Positions 23,597 through 59,566 of a stretch of 64,000 nucleotides of DNA are shown one piece after another. The stretch comes from Naegleria gruberi (taxonomy: Eukaryota). The number at the start of each line of letters is the position of its first letter. Position 1 is the stretch's first letter. Below the pieces are notes generated by a model. That model saw only the letters and a program-made list of their open reading frames with translations. It searched no databases and was not told where the DNA came from. The translations under genes were made by a program, and so were the position numbers. The stretch lies in NCBI GenBank assembly GCA_000004985.1, contig GG738859.1; one strand, given 5' to 3'.

Positions 23597-25267
23597 ATGA
23601 AAAGAAGTGCTTCTGCATCTTGTGAAGGAGAAGAGCCTTCCAAGAAAACAAAACAATCTATGGAGCAAAACTTTATTTCGGAATTGGAAGAGATTGTAGA
23701 ATATTGTCGTGAACAATTCGAAAAAGAATCGGAAGACCCAGATTTCATTGCTGCAGAAATTGGAAATATTCAGAGGAAATTTTACGATTTGCAGAACAAG
23801 TATGAAAAATTCAAGACAATAATTTTAAAAGAGACTTTTACTGACTTGGAAGACTTGGAAACTATGTACAATGAAGCTGATGCAATGCTCAATGAGGCTA
23901 AAGAAGCATTGGCTTCATTTATTGCTTCTGAGGAAAAAACAGAAGGTGAAATCGAAACAGACGAAAATATTGAAAATTTCATTCCACTACCTGAGCTAAA
24001 TGAAGAAACAGAAGTAATACCATTTGAAAGAAGTGAATTAAGAGTAGAAAATATAGAACCCATCCCACTCTTAACATCAAGAAGTTGTTACATTTGTCAG
24101 AGACCCATTGAGAACTCCCCTGTAGTCTGTAAATATTGCTCTAACGCTTGCCATGGCCAATGCTGTGATAAACCAACAATACTGAGAGGAGAAGATACTA
24201 TGATTTGTGAAGTGTGCAGTTCAATCGAGACTGAAGGAGAACCTAATTTTTATTCACTGATAATTAAATCAAAGAATGGAAATGTTACACATGTTAATGA
24301 TATTGGTAATCAACTGAAAGGATTAAGCATTGATAAGTACAAAATCAAATGCCCAAAGTGTCAAGAATTAGTTGCACTAAAAGATTTAAATAGTCACACT
24401 GGAAGAAAATTTGAGTTTGATAAGTTTAGTGACTACCCTTTTGTTCCTTTTTCAGACGAGAAGAATAGAGCCGAAATATCTAGAGTTTTGATTGTTTTCA
24501 ATATCAGCAAAAAGACATTAACCAATATTTGTGAAAGGTACGAAAAAAGGATTGGTCCAGTGGAAATCAATGACATGTATTTAAATGATTCATATGGTAA
24601 TTTTTCAATGCACAAAGCTGTATTCATAACCTTAGAATCTGAAAAGCAAAGTTTTACACTTGCATTGTTTCTGAGCTCGTATTTAATAAGGAAGAATGGG
24701 TAAGTTTTTTTCACGTTTTAGCTTGCAATTTCAATGCAATTTAGTACTGATATCAATGTTCATCCTGTTGTATATTTTTGGAAGTCAAAAGCATTTCAGA
24801 TAGTTATTCCAAGCAAACACGAAATGGAGCTTGTCATACCACCAAAATTGGATGATTTTATTGAAAGAAAGTGGCAGGTAGCTTCAGACACTTCCAATAC
24901 CTTTTATGTAGTATTGAAGGATGTGGCTTATTGTTTTGCTCTTTTGAATACTGTACACGGATTAGTATTGGATAATAAGCAAATTGCAAAAGTTAAAGCA
25001 ATTCAAAATCCTGACACAGACAAGAGGACTGTATTAATTCTAAATATTTATTACGCCTCTATAGAACAATTCAAATATTTCATACTTGATTGTAATACTA
25101 GCTTTGATTTTGATTGGGACGTAATGGTTGAGGAGGATGGATGCCAAATGTTGGAGGACGAAAATTCAATTTCTATCAAGTTTCAATCTGAAGAAATTGC
25201 AAAAGCATTTGTAAATGATTTTAATGATTCCTTATTTAACGAACATCATTTACAAATGTTTAATTGA
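23597..25267 (+). CDS. zinc-finger protein (~543 aa); 2 exons (23597..24699, 24745..25267) joined by a 45-nt intron
   Basis: ATG 23597. Cys clusters CYICQRPIENSPVVCKYCSNACHGQCC...MICEVCS (PHD/RING-like) and KCPKCQELVALKDLNSHTG (TRAF/C2H2-like). The intron gtaagtttttttcacgttttagcttgcaatttcaatgcaatttag (24700..24744) joins ...LIRKNG to TDINVHPVVYFWKSKAF..., which continues as track ORF 24734..25267. Confidence 0.45.
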
Positions 25268-37125: not shown

Positions 37126-37198
37126 GCCGACATAGCTCAGTTGGGAGAGCGTAAGACTGAAGATCTTAAGGTCCCTGGTTCGATCCCTGGTGTCGGCA
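37126..37198 (+). tRNA. tRNA-Phe (anticodon GAA), 73 nt, no intron
   Basis: GCCGACATAGCTCAGTTGGGAGAGCGTAAGACTGAAGATCTTAAGGTCCCTGGTTCGATCCCTGGTGTCGGCA. It folds as a cloverleaf and is near-identical to metazoan-type tRNA-Phe (recalled from memory). There is one U-U mismatch in the T stem. A TTTT terminator lies 3-6 nt downstream. Confidence 0.9.
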
Positions 37199-39683: not shown

Positions 39684-41273
39684 TTATTTCTTCTTATGAG
39701 AAAGGAGCATGAGGGAAGCAACAAAACTTAAAATCATCTTCTTCTTAACTTCAACAATATCTTCCCACAATAAGAAAACAACAGCACCAATCTTTCTGGC
39801 AACTGAAATGGCATACTTGGCATTTTGTTCCTTATCATCAGAAATCATTTCAAGGTTACAAGATTGTGGTGAAATAGCGTGACACAAATTGATCAAGAAA
39901 ACACCATCAGTCAATGATGAATCTTCAAATGATGAAATAGTAGTGTGACCAACAGTCTTGTTAGCCCATTTGAGAACGTCATCTTCACTAACAGCCTTAC
40001 CACCACCAAGATTTTTCAAAGTATCAAGGAGTGAAATCTTCATCAATTGCCAGACGACAGCCAAAACAAGTTTCTTGTTACCATCATTAATATCCTTTCC
40101 TGAAATGTTATTGACCTTAACACCAATATGTTCAGAAGCAGCAACACAAACATTACAATTTCCAACAGCTTGGAAAACATTTCTTGGATACTTTTCAATC
40201 TTCTTTCCTTCAAGACATCCTGGTTTAATCTTTTCCAAAATTTCAGCAAACATTCTTCCATCACGCAAATCATCGAACAAGTTAGCAACGTTAACTCCCA
40301 AACTTTGAATCCAGAAAGTGAAAGCTCTTTCTTCTCTAGTACCTTCACCATCCAAATCCAAAAGATTTGCATAATCAGTCATATCCTTAGGAGCTTCAAG
40401 AGCTGGCCTTGTGTTGAAAAGGTTGGCAACAAAGGCAAGGTTGAGCTTTGAATTACCCTTAACAACATCAAGTGGTTTGACGAGTTTTCTACAATCAATC
40501 TTGGCAGCTTCATTCAACATCTTATCAGCTCTCTTTTCCATATCAGATTCATTCAATGGTGATAAAGTACAACATTCTGGAGCAATTTGCTTCAAGAGAC
40601 GAGTATAAATTTCAGAGTCTGTAACATCGGATGAAAAGTTGGTGATTTTTCTTGATGATCCACTCTTATCCATATGATAGTTAACCCATCTCATAAGAAT
40701 TTCTTCAGTTGGTAATTTAATAAAGCTTTCCAAAGATTCACCTTCCTTCAAGAGGAGAACCAATTCAGGATGGTGCTTGATTGAAATATCCTTAGTAAGA
40801 CATCTCTTAAGAACTTGCCACAATAATCCTAGGACAATGTGTGGTAGACCTTCTTGAATACTGGTTCTGGTAATGTTAACAGTTTTACAACCAATACCAG
40901 CAGCAGAGTTGATGGCCAATTCCAAGTTTTCATTAAGTTGCCATGGATTCAAATTTCCCTTCATGTTAATGACACGTTCGTCAATAGTTTGAGGAGAAGC
41001 AATATTAATTAATTTACTATTAACAATTACCAAAAAATCATCTCTGTTTAAAAAAACCTACCAAAAGATGATACCATCCTTAAGTTTATCAAACAAAGCT
41101 TCACTGTGAATAGGAAGCTTTGACTTGACATCCTTATCCTCTCTAAGTTCGTTGGAAATGTATTCAGAAAAACTTTCGACTTCAGCCTTATCGAATGAGT
41201 GAGTACCAGTTACACCACTCACTGAGGTAGTATTTTCAGAACGACTGGTAAGCTTTGCTTGTGTTGAGGACAT
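39684..41273 (-). CDS. fimbrin/plastin-type actin-bundling protein (four CH domains) lacking the N-terminal EF-hand headpiece; 2 exons (41062..41273, 39684..41016), 45-nt intron
   Basis: Exon 1 MSSTQAKLTSRSENTTSVSGVTGTHSFDKAEVESFSEYISNELREDKDVKSKLPIHSEALFDKLKDGIIF. Intron gtaggtttttttaaacagagatgattttttggtaattgttaatag (41017..41061). Exon 2 CKLINIASPQTIDERVINMKGNLNPWQLNENLELAINSAAGIGCKTVNI...GLPHIVLGLLWQVLK.... The spliced junction DGIIFCKLINIASPQTIDER matches human plastin [20 protein letters not shown]. The unspliced sequence has an in-frame TAG. Confidence 0.8.
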
Positions 41274-41850
41274 TTTTTATTGTGATTGTATTGTACTGGT
41301 GTCTCCAAGCGCCCTTTTGTGGGTTTCACATTGGAATATTGAGAAAATGCTTGTTTGTGGGATTCTTTAGATGCTGTTTCTCGATCTCCATGTATAAAAA
41401 TCAACTCTTTGAGGTCGAATAATATTGATCATTATGAGAAATATGAGTATAGTGCTGTATTATATTACTGTCAAGTGACATTTAACTTGAAGATCAAGTC
41501 GCTTATTAAGGAATAAATAATCAACAAGTGGAAGAGAGCTCTCCCAACATTCTATTTTTAAAGTATAACAGAACATGTTCTGTACTTAGAGCTGTTCACC
41601 ATCTTTCATTATCAAAATATTGCCAGCTTGAATGTCACCTTCTCAAATTTATTAAGGATATAACACTTGAAAGTTGTTCAAAGGAATAAAAATTGTAGAT
41701 CACACTTGTTATCATTTAAAGGAATTTTGTACCAAACATGTTGGATACCTTTGTACAAAAATGCAATATCTGTCCTAATTCAAAGTTTCTAGGGTTGGCG
41801 CCACAGTAAATTTAAAGCCGTTTTGTCGTTGAGGTGAATTTAAAAAAAAA

Positions 41851-42336
41851 ATGCTGACCTCAAAAACAAGAAGAGACAGTAGTGAGAGGAGTAGAACAGG
41901 AAGCACGCAGAGAGTGATTAGACAAAATGGAGAGTTGTTTGGAGTGATACACGAAAGTAGAGCATCAAAAACAGCAAGGGATGATTACTTTCGACCGGAA
42001 TCAACCTACTCATCATCATTTGTAGTACCTAGAACATCCGATCAGCTCAACTCATCAGGTTCTTCTTTTAAAAAACCATTAATGCCTTATAAAATGAATG
42101 CTCCTAGAAATATGCTACCAGTTAGATTCTCTCATGATACTGTTCAAGGAAGGAAGAATGCCAGAAACAGCAGTCAATTCAATCTGAGGGATGGAGCTAA
42201 TTCTGATCGAACACGGTTTAGGACAACCAATCAAGTGAGCTACATTAATCATTCGGGTGGTCTTCCTGTTGGATTTGAAAATAAGGGGATACTGAGCGAG
42301 AAAACAAAGTGGTTCCACAAACGTCAAATGGATTAA
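41851..42336 (+). CDS. hypothetical basic Ser/Arg-rich protein (161 aa)
   Basis: ATG-initiated ORF after a 570-nt spacer. Composition is R/S/T-rich. No recognisable domain. Confidence 0.3.
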   Translation: MLTSKTRRDSSERSRTGSTQRVIRQNGELFGVIHESRASKTARDDYFRPESTYSSSFVVPRTSDQLNSSGSSFKKPLMPYKMNAPRNMLPVRFSHDTVQGRKNARNSSQFNLRDGANSDRTRFRTTNQVSYINHSGGLPVGFENKGILSEKTKWFHKRQMD

Positions 42337-42949: not shown

Positions 42950-44380
42950 ATGACGCAAGAGGATCCATACGGAAACGATGAAGATCTTCTCATAATTGAC
43001 AATCATAAACCCCTTAGTGTTGTTCAACAACTTGTACCAAAGGAGGAACCACCTCAGTCAAAACTTCCACTGGAAGAAATAGCAGAAAATGAGCGTTCAA
43101 CCTTAACAAAGAGTACCTCTCATCCTAATTCTCTTTCTCCTCGATTGAATTCGCTATCTATTGTGAATAGTGAAAATAATGGAGTTGTTTCTCAAAGTAG
43201 TATAAGAAGAAAATCAATTGTATCTAATAGTCCTATCATTCCTCCTAAAACCTTCTCATCACTTAAAGATGATTTTAAAATAATGTATAGAGTCTTTACT
43301 CATCTTACCTATGTAGAATTAATCCGAGTTGGAAATACTTGTTCTTTCTGGAGAATGATACTAAGAGATTGTGAAAAACTTAGCAAACAAAAAGAGAAAC
43401 TCATGGGTGTTGAGTACGTCGATTTATATGAGAGAGAATGCAAAAGATTATGGCCTTCTAATCATGATGTGTCGAGATACCCACCAGAGAGGCCACTTGC
43501 ACCAACTGCTGAAACATTCAAAGTGAAAAATGATGACGAGGAAGAAATTAAACCATCATCACAAAGAAGAGCATCCATCCTTGAACTTGACACAGGAGGT
43601 TATAGAAGAATGCTTCTCGATAGAAATAGAGAAAACGAGTTATTCCCTATTGTATATTTAGAATTTTCAAAAACATCAAGACAATCCTATCTAAGCAATA
43701 ACAGTAGTGAATTTGTGAGTTTGGGAAGAGTTGAAATTAAATTGAATAAGAAAGAAGCCCCTAAGGCAGCAGAGAATTTTAGATGTTTGTGCACAGGAGA
43801 AAAGGGATTATCTCCAAATTCAATTCCTCTCTATTTTAAGGGTGCAACCATGCACAAAGCACTCCAAGCCACTTTTATTCAGGGTGGTGATATTGTCTAT
43901 TCAGGTGCTAGTGGATGGTGGCAAGCTCAATATGGAAAGGAAATTGCATCATCAAGAAACGACCCAATTGCAGTAGAGGGAGAAGGATCTGAAAGCATTT
44001 ATGGACAAACTTTTGATAGTGACTCCAGTGAATTATGTCACAATCCTGGATCCGTTTCTTGTGTTGTTAAACCTGGTAATGGATGTCAATTTAATATTTG
44101 TGTAACAAAGTGTAAAGAGCTAGATGGAAAGCAAATTGTATTTGGAGAAGTTGTTAAAGGTCAAGAAGTTGTCAGAAAGATTGAAACAATTATCCTTATT
44201 GCTCAGCAAGCCGCACCTGAAGATCAAGAGGTGGTCTTTATCAAGGCTTGTGGTCAAACTGGTTTCAGTGGAAAAACATTCGACATGTGGACTCATGAAA
44301 TACTGACCGAGGTAATGGAAGAACCAAAAACAGTTGTACGAAATGAACCAGTGAAATCGAGAACATGCCAAATTTTATAA
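42950..44380 (+). CDS. F-box protein with C-terminal cyclophilin-like (PPIase-fold) domain
   Basis: ATG 42950. Disordered N-terminus. F-box-like IMYRVFTHLTYVELIRVGNTCSFWRMILRDCEKL. Cyclophilin-like VEIKLNKKEAPKAAENFRCLCTGEKGL...GATMHKALQATFIQGGDIV...SIYGQTFDSDSSELCHNPGSVSCVVKPGNGCQFNICVTKCKELDGKQIVFGEVVKG. Compare [45 protein letters not shown]...GKSIYG.KF.DE.F.L.H...G.LSMAN.GPNTNGSQFFI.T....WLDGKHVVFG.V..G. The catalytic Arg/His positions are altered. Confidence 0.55.
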   Translation: MTQEDPYGNDEDLLIIDNHKPLSVVQQLVPKEEPPQSKLPLEEIAENERSTLTKSTSHPNSLSPRLNSLSIVNSENNGVVSQSSIRRKSIVSNSPIIPPKTFSSLKDDFKIMYRVFTHLTYVELIRVGNTCSFWRMILRDCEKLSKQKEKLMGVEYVDLYERECKRLWPSNHDVSRYPPERPLAPTAETFKVKNDDEEEIKPSSQRRASILELDTGGYRRMLLDRNRENELFPIVYLEFSKTSRQSYLSNNSSEFVSLGRVEIKLNKKEAPKAAENFRCLCTGEKGLSPNSIPLYFKGATMHKALQATFIQGGDIVYSGASGWWQAQYGKEIASSRNDPIAVEGEGSESIYGQTFDSDSSELCHNPGSVSCVVKPGNGCQFNICVTKCKELDGKQIVFGEVVKGQEVVRKIETIILIAQQAAPEDQEVVFIKACGQTGFSGKTFDMWTHEILTEVMEEPKTVVRNEPVKSRTCQIL

Positions 44381-44512: not shown

Positions 44513-47451
44513 ATGAGCACACATCATCGTAGTTCAAGTCTCCATCAGGAGAATAAAAAACACAAATCAAAGCACATCAGTAAGCGTCAATTAAAGAAGG
44601 AAAGTAAAGGTCGTGTTGAACATGAAGGTGGTCTCAAAGCATCTCAAATGAAGAAGACTCATCAAAACGCCAAAGCTCAACGTAAACAACGTGCTAAACA
44701 AGTTCGGGATAACAAGAAACAACAAATTTTATATAGACAACGTTTGGGAAGAAGTGGCAATCCACCAAGAATTGTCTCTGTCATGTCTTTGAGTGGACAA
44801 GGTATGTTGATGATTTAAATTTCCTCCGAGTTTTAACCGAATTAAAAGATGAAGGAGAAGTTGAAAGTGTATTTTCTGATATTATGAGTAGAAGTGAAGA
44901 ATTTGAAAGTGGAAAAATTAATTTGAATGATTTGGATTTTTCTAGTGTTCGTTCAATTCGGTAGGTAATCAAATGATAATTGACTAACCATTTCAATAGT
45001 CTTCAAAAGGAATTCCAACAAAAATCACTTACTCTCTTCTGTGTGAAACAAGCAAATTCTAGATCTGTTTTGGATGCTGCTAAAGTTTCCGATATTATGA
45101 TTTTTGTTCTTCCAGCTCAAAGTATTCAATTCAATGGTAATCAAGAACCATCCTTACATCCAACTGCTAAATATAATCTCTCACTTCTTAGAGCTCAAGG
45201 TTTACCATCTAGTATTGTCGTTTTACAAGGATTGAATCAAATTTCTCAAAAAAAGCAAAATGATGTGAAACAAGTTGTTAACAAGATTATGAAGGATGAA
45301 ATTCCAGACTTTGAAAAGGTCTTTTCATTGACTTCAACAACAAATAGTATGGATGATTCTGCCAATTTTGAAACTACCAAGACAGAAATGAAACAAATTT
45401 TGTTACGTTTGAATTCATTAACACCAAAAACTATCTATTGGAGAGAAAATCATCCATACATGATTGTGGAAAATCTTGAATTCATCAAGAAGGATCAATC
45501 TGAAATCAATGAATTATCAGATGAAAATAGTAATAATGGTACACTTGTTATTCGTGGATATTTACGTGGTAAACCAGCCAGTCCAAATCAACTTTTCCAT
45601 CTTGTCAATTATGGTACTTATCAATTGGATAAAATTGTTTTGGAAAAGGAAAATTCACATGCTTACTCAAAGAAGAAACAACAAGGTTCTAGTTCAAATG
45701 CAATGGAAGATGACAAGGTTGGTACTAGTCAAATGAGTACAACTGCTGATTCCAATGAACCAAAAACCTTGTTACCAGATGAAAAGCAAGAATCTCTTCA
45801 AACTGCTCTTGAACCAAATCTTATGGATGGTGAACAAACCTTGCCAACCAAGGAAGATTATGAAATGGAATTGGCTAACCAAATTACTGAAAAACAAGCT
45901 GGTTATGTTTACCATAAGAAGGTTGTTCCAAAGGGTATGACTCCAACTGAAGCTGCTTGGATTATTGACCATTTGGAAGATGCTGAAGAAGACCAATCCG
46001 ATGAGGAAGAAGATGAAATGATTGATGAAGCCAACAGAGCTGTTGCTGCTGATGAAGAAGAAAGACGTGTCGATTTCAATTTTGATATTGCTTCTGAAGC
46101 TCAAACTCATATTGAAAAACACTTCAACTTGGACGAAATGGATGAAGATATGACTGAAGAAGAAAGAATTGCTGAAATGATGCGTGCCATTAAATCCAGA
46201 AAGGAGATGAAGAATGAAATGGATTATCCTGATGAAGTTGATACACCATTAGATATTCCAGCTCGTGTCCGTTTCCAAAAATACAGAGGTTTGAAATCAT
46301 TCAGATCTTCACCATGGGATGCTGAAGAAAATTTACCATTGGATTATTCACGTATTTTCAGATTTAAGAATTTCCAAACATCTCAAAAGCTTGCTTTGGA
46401 AGGTTTTGATCCAGAAAATGATTACAATTTATGGGAAAATTATATCACTCTCCACATTGCTAATGTTCCAGCCAACATGTGTGAAGTTATTCAACAAAAG
46501 AAGGAACCACTCATTGTCTTTGGTTTACTTAAACACGAACAAAAGACCAGTCTTGTCCATTTACTTGTAAAGAGAACTAACGACTCAGTTGTTGTTAAAC
46601 AATCAACAAGTTATGATCCATCTGATAATATTACAAAGATGATTGAATACCATCCTCAAGAAGACGATGATGGTGAAGAAGAGCCAATACCTGGTGCTGA
46701 AGTTGAAGAAAATCCAATCAAATCTAAGGATGAACTTATTATTCAAATTGGTTTCAGAACATTTAAATGTAATCCTATTTATTCGGAACATAATCCTAGA
46801 AATGATAAGCACAAATACGAAAGATTCTTTGCTCCATATCGTTTCCTTATTGCCACAGTGTATGCTCCAGTAACCTTTAAACCTGCACCTGTTTTAATGT
46901 TCCGAAGGAATAATAAGAATACCATGTCACTTGTTGACAATATGATTGTACAAACTGAACCATCACAAACTCTTGATCAACCAAATCTTGACTTTGTTGG
47001 TCATGGCACAGTTCACGGTGTTGATCCATACCGTAGAGTTATTAAGAAGATTATTCTTACTGGTCACCCTTACAAACTTCATAAGAATCAAGTTGTTGCT
47101 CGTTACATGTTCTTCAATCCAGAAGATATTCGTTGGTTCAAACCAGTTGAAGTTTATACTAAATATGGTAGACATGGTATTATCAAAGAAGCTGTTGGTA
47201 CTCATGGTTATATGCGTTGTTTATTCGATGATATTGTCCTTCCAAAGGATACTATTTGTATGAATTTATACAAGAGAGTTTTCCCAAAGTGGACCACAGA
47301 GAGTTCATCCCTGTTAGCAGGTCCAACTATTTCAATTCCTCGTCCACTTAAACAAACTACATCATCTGGTGGTGCTTACCTCAATGAAGAAGCAATTAGA
47401 AGATTGGGTATTATGTCCAAATCTGAAGAATTAGAAATGATTGAAGACTAA
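44513..47451 (+). CDS. TSR1: ribosome biogenesis protein TSR1 (pre-40S GTPase-like factor); 3 exons (44513..44801, 44849..44960, 45000..47451)
   Basis: MSTHHRSSSLHQENKKHKSKH...RQRLGRSGNPPRIVSVMSLSGQ aligns with the TSR1 N-terminus (HRS.LKQ.NK..KSKHASKG...PP..V.VVPL). Downstream: ...LDAAKVSDIMIFVL..., EVDTPLDIPARVRFQKYRGLKSFRSSPWDAEENLPLDYSRIFRFKNFQ, HPYKLHKNQVVARYMFFNPEDIRWFKPVEVYTKYGRHGIIKE..GTHGYMRCLFD, LYKRVFPKWT. Introns are 47 nt (gtatgttgat...aattaaaag) and 39 nt (gtaggtaatc...tgactaacc...caatag). Confidence 0.8.
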
Positions 47452-57424: not shown

Positions 57425-59566
57425 TTATTTTTCTTTTCTCTTGGCCATCTTTCTGTCGAGGGCACCCAAAACTTTCTTTCTCAAACGAATATTCTTTGGT
57501 GTAACTTCAATAAGTTCATCTTGTTGGATATAAGTCAAAACTTCTTCCAATTGGAATACTCGAGGTGGAGATAATCTGATAGTATCTTCCTTACCTGCTG
57601 CTCTCATGTTAGTCAAGTGTTTTTCCTTACAAGGATTAACTTCAATATCATTTTCTCTACTGTGTTCACCAACAATCATACCTTCATAACATTCAGCTGA
57701 TGGATGAATGAAAATATTACCTCTAGCTTCAAGTGGACCTAAAGCATAAGGTGTACCTTTACCACCTTCAAGTGAAACCATGACACCCTTTCTAGTCTTT
57801 TCAATAGGTCCCTTGTATGGTTCATAATCACTGAAAATGTGAGTGAGCATACCTTCACCACGAGTATCAGTTCTGAATTCAGAAGCATAACCAATGAGAC
57901 CACGAGTTGGAACTCTATAAAGTAATTTAGCCTTAATACCATCAACCTTATAATCAATCATTTCACCCTTTCTCTTAGCAAGCTTTTCCATACATTGAGC
58001 AGCCAAACCATTATCAACATCAATTGTAACTTCTTCAATTGGTTCCAAAATATCATCCTTACCACCACCTTCAACATCCTTAAAGATGACTCTTGGAGGA
58101 GAAACTTGGAATTCATAACCTTCTCTTCTCATATTTTCAATAAGTACAGCCAATTGCATTTCACCACGACCCATAATTTCAAAAGCTTCACCCATTGGTT
58201 TAATTGTTAAACTGACGTTCATTTCAGCTTCCTTCAATAAACGAGCACGAAGTTGAGTTGCAGAACATAATTTACCTTCCTTACCAGCCAATGGACTGTC
58301 ATTGACAAGGAACATTACAGACAAAATTGGAGGATCAATTGGTTTAGCTTCAATTGGAGTTGTAACTTGTTTAACATCACAAACTGTATCAGTAACACTG
58401 GCCTTTGAAATACCAGCAATGGATACAATAGAACCAGATAAAGCTCTCTTTACAGGTGTTCTTTGCATACCAATTCTTTGCATGACTTGTAAAACTTTAC
58501 CTTCTTCTAAAACTTCACCAGTTCTACTCATAACTTTAACTCTATCACCTGGTTTAACGGCACCACCATACATTTTACCAGTAACAATTCTACCGAAAAT
58601 TCTATCATAATCAACTGTACTAACAAGCATTTGGAATGGACTTGCAGCAGATGGTCTAACTTTTGGACATGGAATATGTTCCAAAATTGCTTCAAAGATT
58701 GGAGCTGTATTCTTTCTTTCATCCTTTTCAAAATCTTTAACTGCCCAACCACTCTTGGCACTGGCATATAAAATTGGGAAATCCAATTGTTCATCATTAG
58801 CTCCCAAATCAATAAATAAGTCATAAACTTCATTTTCAACTTCACCTCCAATACGAGCAGTTTCACGATCTGATTTGTTGAAAATAACAATTGGTTTCAA
58901 TCCATGTTCTAAGGCCTTTCTCAAAACAAACTTTGTTTGAGCCATAACACCTTCAGTAGCATCAACAAGTAAACAAACACCATCAACCATTGACATGACT
59001 CTTTCCACTTCACCTGAAAAATCAGCATGTCCTGGAGTATCAACAATATTGATAATATATTCACCCTTATATTGAACTGATGTCAATTTAGCCATAATTG
59101 TAATACCTCTTTCCTTTTCCAAGTCCAAACTATCCATTGTACGTTCTTCAGCATCATCTTTAATTGTACCTGTTTGTTTTAATAAACAATCAATCATTGT
59201 TGTTTTACCTGTATCGACGTGAGCAATAATTGCCAAGTTACGAATATTCTTTACTGTGACAAATCCTTCGGAATCAGCTTCAGATTCAACTTGAGGAATA
59301 TCTAAAATATTGATATAATTGGATCCAGATAAATCAACTTTGGAATCATGTTGACGTAAATTTGAGGAGAAGAAACGTTCTTGTTGTTGGGAAAGTAATC
59401 TTTGTAAAAGAGAATGTTTTTGGAGGAGATTAGAGTGCTCAAAGTGGAACCCTTGTGAAAAAACAGATGAGGCAGCCCCGATACAAGGTTTTGACTGTGA
59501 TGATGAAGAAGCAATCTTCCTGACGATACGACTACCACTGGCGACAAGGTTTTTAGAGTTGAGCAT
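57425..59566 (-). CDS. typA: BipA/TypA translational GTPase (bacterial type) with ~110-aa N-terminal organellar targeting-like extension
   Basis: 713 aa, single exon. [29 protein letters not shown]...[83 protein letters not shown]... plus the BipA-specific C-terminal domain (...[42 protein letters not shown]...). The N-terminal [27 protein letters not shown]... is Ser/Arg-rich and presequence-like. Confidence 0.85.

Follow-up and report, generated by a model that had tools for sequence, protein, structure and literature searches.

On the minus strand of the window, by which we mean the whole 64-kb stretch of Naegleria gruberi DNA that was analysed, there very probably lies an intact and functional two-exon gene for a fimbrin that has the four-CH core and no EF-hand headpiece, and whose product would be expected to bundle actin and to be insensitive to Ca2+. 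As we propose it, a single 45-nt intron would be spliced out of a Cys codon in the CH1 motif DGIIFCKLIN to give a 514-aa protein, in which a disordered leader of ~24 residues would run directly into the four-CH actin-crosslinking core. The spliced product is identical over its entire length (100% identity, 100% coverage) to XP_002679081.1 / EFC46337.1 / UniProt D2V9Z2 (NAEGRDRAFT_65679), which means that the window is nuclear DNA of N. gruberi and that the intron and the gene model are already public; GenBank has listed the gene, the intron and the protein ever since the N. gruberi genome was released, and the class has been known since the work on Tetrahymena. The deposited name is 'predicted protein' and the word 'fimbrin' is absent from it, and the entry can now be named a headless fimbrin paralogue.

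Gene structure and the 45-nt intron

Read from the sequence, the gene has two exons on the minus strand with a 1545-nt CDS for 514 aa. Exon 1 (41273-41062, 212 nt) encodes residues 1-70 and the first two bases of Cys71, the 45-nt intron (41061-41017, phase 2) runs from GT to AG (GTAGGT...AATAG, GTAGGTTTTTTTAAACAGAGATGATTTTTTGGTAATTGTTAATAG), and exon 2 (41016-39684, 1333 nt with the TAA at 39686-39684 counted) encodes the remaining part of CH1 and the whole of CH2-CH4. The ATG at 41273 is the first start codon past an in-frame stop, a TAA at 41279-41277 of the same strand, two codons 5' of it. The N-terminal leader (residues 1-24) occupies 41202-41273, actin-binding domain 1 (ABD1, CH1+CH2, residues ~25-272) occupies 40413-41201, a span that includes the intron, and actin-binding domain 2 (ABD2, CH3+CH4, residues ~294-510) occupies 39699-40349, all on the minus strand and the two domains as placed by alignment with 1aoa and 3byh_B, respectively.

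Left unspliced, the frame from 41273 is a 71-codon ORF terminated by a TAG at 41060-41058 inside the intron, and a second ORF, of 449 codons, occupies another frame between 41033 and the TAA of exon 2. The original prediction had rightly recognized an in-frame TAG inside the intron, and its coordinates for it, 41059-41061, were off by one. Because the unspliced frame does meet this TAG, the locus could be taken for a pseudogene or a stop-truncated gene, whose sole product would be either the 71-aa peptide of exon 1 or a protein started internally and lacking part of CH1. Against this, excision of exactly 45 nt from GT to AG takes out the stop and restores a gap-free invariant CH1 motif, N. fowleri and N. 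lovaniensis have an intron at the same position, the 514 codons contain no further stop and are 71% identical to N. fowleri with 51/51 family-invariant residues kept in the homologue alignment, and the full protein gives a confident structure model. We therefore consider a broken gene extremely unlikely.

The intact gene with its intron removed has the junction ...KLKDGIIF-C-KLINIASPQTIDERV (KDGIIF-C-KLINIA), in which the Cys codon is divided after TG, and which aligns ungapped with fimbrin cores; the claim that the splice recreates the conserved DGI(I/V)(F/L)CK(L/M)IN is thus borne out. The orthologues of N. fowleri (514 aa, 71% identity) and N. lovaniensis (516 aa) carry GT-AG introns of 286 nt and 162 nt, respectively, at the identical Cys codon and in the identical phase of KDGI(I/V)LCKLIN. 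When the possible joins were scored with an HMM of 117 homologues from which the Naegleria A clade was left out, the junction 41061/41017 ranked first among 40 in-frame stop-free GT-AG joins (729.2 vs 709.5 bits for the runner-up). The 39 further combinations leave formal room for a different junction, and with it a slightly altered CH1, but each of them removes or adds residues in a conserved CH1 helix, they score about 20 bits or more lower, and none coincides with the intron position of the orthologues, so that the use of any of them is scarcely conceivable. The exon junction given in the original prediction, 41062/41016, is correct, and it agrees both with the orthologue introns and with the best of the 40 joins. 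As for a U2-type intron, removal from GT to AG restores an open conserved frame, and the position is shared with the orthologues. We regard the 45-nt intron as well supported, the splice and the transcription start being placed by comparison at the protein level.

The description of this intron as cryptic, and of the gene as having the look of a pseudogene, did not hold, since the same model is deposited as XP_002679081.1 and candidate introns of 40-60 nt recur in the window. In a crude census made without homologue comparison, candidate introns of 39-59 nt with the form GT[AG]NGT...YAG, each bridging open stretches of at least 60 codons, were seen on the plus strand at 24700-24744 (45 nt) and 44961-44999, and on the minus strand at 32825-32781 (45 nt), 63286-63230, 61120-61082, 16587-16533 and 14339-14281. 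If these candidates are real, introns as short as this would be typical of the N. gruberi genome.

The four-CH core and the EF-hand headpiece

A Pfam search of the spliced 514-aa product gave four stretches of CH domain (E 8.3e-75), and no EF-hand family was matched even with the cutoff relaxed to E<=1. Among PDB sequences, the protein aligned with the S. pombe fimbrin actin-crosslinking core 1rt8 (E 2e-121, query residues 25-508), with plastin-3 7r94 (E 5e-119), where the alignment starts only at human plastin residue ~109, and with the Arabidopsis fimbrin core 1pxy (E 9e-119), and all three alignments cross the splice junction ungapped, an agreement far greater than chance would give. Taken by domain, query residues 15-272 align with human T-fimbrin ABD1 1aoa (E 1.6e-68), on which the modeled ABD1 gives a fold match of TMt 0.86, and residues 294-510 align with the fimbrin ABD2 3byh_B (E 7.6e-47), whose fold was matched as well. 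The AlphaFold model, calculated from an input alignment of 40 homologues, has a mean pLDDT of 87.9 and a pTM of 0.81, and includes a confidently predicted helix at residues 68-77 that spans the splice junction within CH1. It superposes on 1rt8 with TM 0.82/0.90 and an rmsd of 2.8 Å and on 1pxy with TM 0.80/0.86, implying that the native product would be essentially the headpiece-deleted 'fimbrin core' of the crystallographers. Judged by the four-CH core, the end-to-end homology and the matching compact fold of the model, the protein is a member of the fimbrin/plastin family.

The conserved opening of the fimbrin core, the HS[FY] motif, is preceded by ~24 residues, close to the 'about 20 aa' before CH1 that had been predicted. 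This leader, MSSTQAKLTSRSENTTSVSGVTGT, of 24 residues, is Ser/Thr-rich and predicted to be disordered, with pLDDT <50 at residues 1-17, and it is conserved in three Naegleria species, N. gruberi, N. fowleri and N. lovaniensis having the N-terminus MS(S)T..KL..R.ENTTSVSGV in common. Its counterpart in EF-hand fimbrins is, by alignment, the distal stretch of the linker between headpiece and CH1. A leader that is both conserved and aligned in this way makes the gene look like a 5' truncation with its start codon inside the linker; if the leader is a remnant of the linker, the 5' EF-hand coding region would have been lost and a new start taken up within the linker.

The headpiece with two EF-hands that belongs to the canonical EF-EF-CH1-4 architecture is absent from the protein and from the 64-kb window. 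With an HMM built from 37 fimbrin headpieces (at least 85 aa) among the retrieved homologues, a search of six-frame fragments of the whole window with filters off gave a best E of 1.4 (6.6 bits), and the 514-aa protein itself scored E 0.15. As positive controls, the same HMM found the EF-hand exon of Willaertia magna in genomic sequence at E 3.4e-24 and scored the Willaertia protein at 6.5e-35. The PROSITE EF-loop pattern, which occurs twice in each of the EF-hand fimbrin controls, matched once in the entire window, at 59335 on the minus strand, ~18 kb away and within an unrelated 714-aa ORF. In a tblastn search of the window with four EF-hand headpieces, only the exon-1 linker was matched and all else had E>0.4. 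The 577-nt intergenic region upstream of the fimbrin gene (41274-41850), which ends at a divergent plus-strand ORF, was without EF-hand coding potential and without a known RNA gene by tblastn, HMM, EF-loop pattern, Rfam and ARAGORN. The layout is instead the headpiece-less, Tetrahymena-type one, in which a native protein without an EF-hand domain starts just ahead of CH1. Both the call of a fimbrin without an EF-hand headpiece and the absence of an upstream EF-hand exon, made in the original prediction, are therefore upheld.

We considered that the gene model might be incomplete at its 5' end, the headpiece lying on an unrecognised upstream exon that is either far away (>22 kb, past the end of the window) or highly divergent. 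Such an arrangement has some appeal since Willaertia magna, the closest genome-bearing relative outside Naegleria, has an EF-hand fimbrin whose headpiece is split by an intron, and since AG dinucleotides occur within exon 1. However, neither the headpiece HMM nor the EF-loop pattern yields a headpiece on either strand of the 64 kb, and the TAA two codons before the ATG closes the frame, so that exon 1 cannot simply reach further upstream. Conservation of the Met and the leader extends to all three species, and dozens of headless fimbrins derived from transcripts likewise start with Met at this place in the alignment. The fimbrin orthologues of N. fowleri and N. lovaniensis have a divergent gene that begins 233-237 nt upstream of them, and with this neighbour at ~235 nt, the headpiece HMM found no match upstream of either orthologue on the strand of the fimbrin gene. 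A tblastx comparison of the N. fowleri locus with the window showed similarity that begins inside exon 1 and none 5' of the start codon. We consider a missed headpiece exon very unlikely and keep the natively headless gene as our reading.

Genomic surroundings

Downstream of the fimbrin gene and on the same minus strand lies a KxDL-motif gene (39638-39138, 166 aa, Pfam PF10241, E 6e-20), and because its ATG stands 45 nt past the fimbrin stop, the 3' end of the fimbrin gene and the 5' region of the KxDL gene must either overlap or closely abut. A tRNA-Phe(GAA) gene lies further on, at 37126-37198 on the plus strand (Rfam, 67.9 bits; ARAGORN), and neither Rfam nor ARAGORN found an RNA family in or upstream of the fimbrin gene. 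On the other side, the divergent ORF of 161 aa (41851-42336, plus strand) is a putative gene with no Pfam match, and is followed by a 476-aa ORF of cyclophilin-type PPIase (42950-44380, plus strand, E 2.7e-27). A weak, sub-threshold F-box-like match lies N-terminal to the cyclophilin domain, a pairing that would be an unusual domain combination if real.

N. fowleri and N. lovaniensis show synteny around this fimbrin gene, its flanks there containing a NAD_binding_4/Sterile gene, a divergent gene of ~755 aa and an RGS gene. There are no such neighbours near the N. gruberi copy, implying a rearrangement of the region that separates N. gruberi from the other two; tblastx found no neighbours common to the N. 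gruberi and N. fowleri loci, so synteny is unusable between these two. The headpiece HMM gave a weak match (E 0.014, 11 bits) in the N. lovaniensis locus at 4816-3026 (minus strand), within the divergent neighbour of ~753 aa. This match is on the strand opposite to the fimbrin gene, and the N. fowleri counterpart scored E 2.2; noise, or a match to some generic helix-loop-helix stretch, is the probable explanation.

Headless fimbrins in Naegleria and other protists

NAEGRDRAFT_65679, which we call paralogue A, is one of two fimbrin/plastin paralogues in Naegleria. The other, paralogue B (N. gruberi XP_002678185.1, 'actin bundling protein'), has a four-CH core ~55% identical to that of paralogue A, is likewise headless, and was found in N. 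fowleri and N. lovaniensis too. The Willaertia magna fimbrin differs from them in that its 605 aa retain two canonical EF loops, in a headpiece interrupted by a 56-nt intron (locus L002 5001-6877). In an NJ tree without support values, it groups with Naegleria paralogue B, and no Willaertia counterpart of paralogue A was among the top matches listed. An epimerase-domain gene lies immediately upstream at both the Willaertia fimbrin locus and the N. fowleri paralogue B locus, and no EF-hand exon was detectable in the 8 kb upstream of N. fowleri paralogue B (locus L003 8001-9939), the locus used for this check. The retained EF loops of the Willaertia counterpart, the missing EF-hand exon of N. 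fowleri B and the shared epimerase neighbour together suggest that paralogue B lost its headpiece on the Naegleria stem, after the split from Willaertia.

Headless forms, with 0-45 residues before the core, make up 74 of the best 120 homologues, and 69/74 of them begin with Met, while in 37 of the same 120 the headpiece measures 85 aa or more. The headless group takes in the two Acrasis kona proteins, the two Percolomonas transcripts and the two Balamuthia proteins, and headless and EF-hand forms interleave in the NJ tree, whose branches carry no support values. Surveys that had N. gruberi among their taxa list fimbrin in every eukaryote examined (PMC3748353), and our search of the literature returned no paper on the architecture of Naegleria fimbrins. 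We give about even weight to the broader reading in which protist fimbrins have lost the headpiece repeatedly and widely, the ciliate case being no oddity and both Naegleria paralogues being without it.

Inferred function and comparison with known fimbrins

By homology, each ABD of the Naegleria protein would bind one actin filament, so that a monomer would crosslink filaments into tight bundles. In plastins, a Ca2+-binding EF-hand pair together with a switch helix is described as turning bundling off (PMC10533516). The actin-binding domains of human plastins (PLS1/LCP1/PLS3) and Dictyostelium FimA are homologous to ABD1 and ABD2 of the Naegleria protein, whereas their EF-hand pair is absent from it, and before CH1, where plastins have their switch helix, it has only ~24 residues, of low confidence at 1-17, that align with the distal linker. 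With the EF-hand headpiece absent, the plastin-type Ca2+ off-switch should not act on bundling, by analogy with the Tetrahymena fimbrin. The latter is described as being without an EF-hand domain and as bundling actin independently of Ca2+ (PMC4832064, PMC10533516, citing Shirayama & Numata 2003), and the protist precedent invoked in the original prediction can be found there (PMC4832064). The two proteins are likened by their described architecture and belong to different supergroups, one being from a ciliate and the other from a heterolobosean; Ca2+-independent bundling is reported for the Tetrahymena protein and predicted for the Naegleria one. S. pombe Fim1 core (1RT8) and Arabidopsis fimbrin core (1PXY) resemble the Naegleria protein as compact four-CH cores, but these are laboratory truncations of EF-hand-bearing proteins, whereas the core-only form of Naegleria is a native gene product. 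Ca2+ control could be exerted in trans or via other bundlers. More speculatively, the Ser/Thr-rich leader might be a phosphoregulatory site, by likeness to L-plastin and Sac6; phosphorylation of the Sac6 linker is described in PMC4832064.

The evolutionary pattern that emerges from the comparison, in which both Naegleria fimbrins are headless while Willaertia retains the headpiece, is the sole element of this analysis that is mildly new. The majority of the closest homologues, protist and environmental, are headless, a point that bears on any extension of the Ca2+ regulation of plastins across eukaryotes. If headpiece loss has indeed taken both Naegleria paralogues, an amoeba that is among the fastest crawlers would be left without any fimbrin that Ca2+ could switch.
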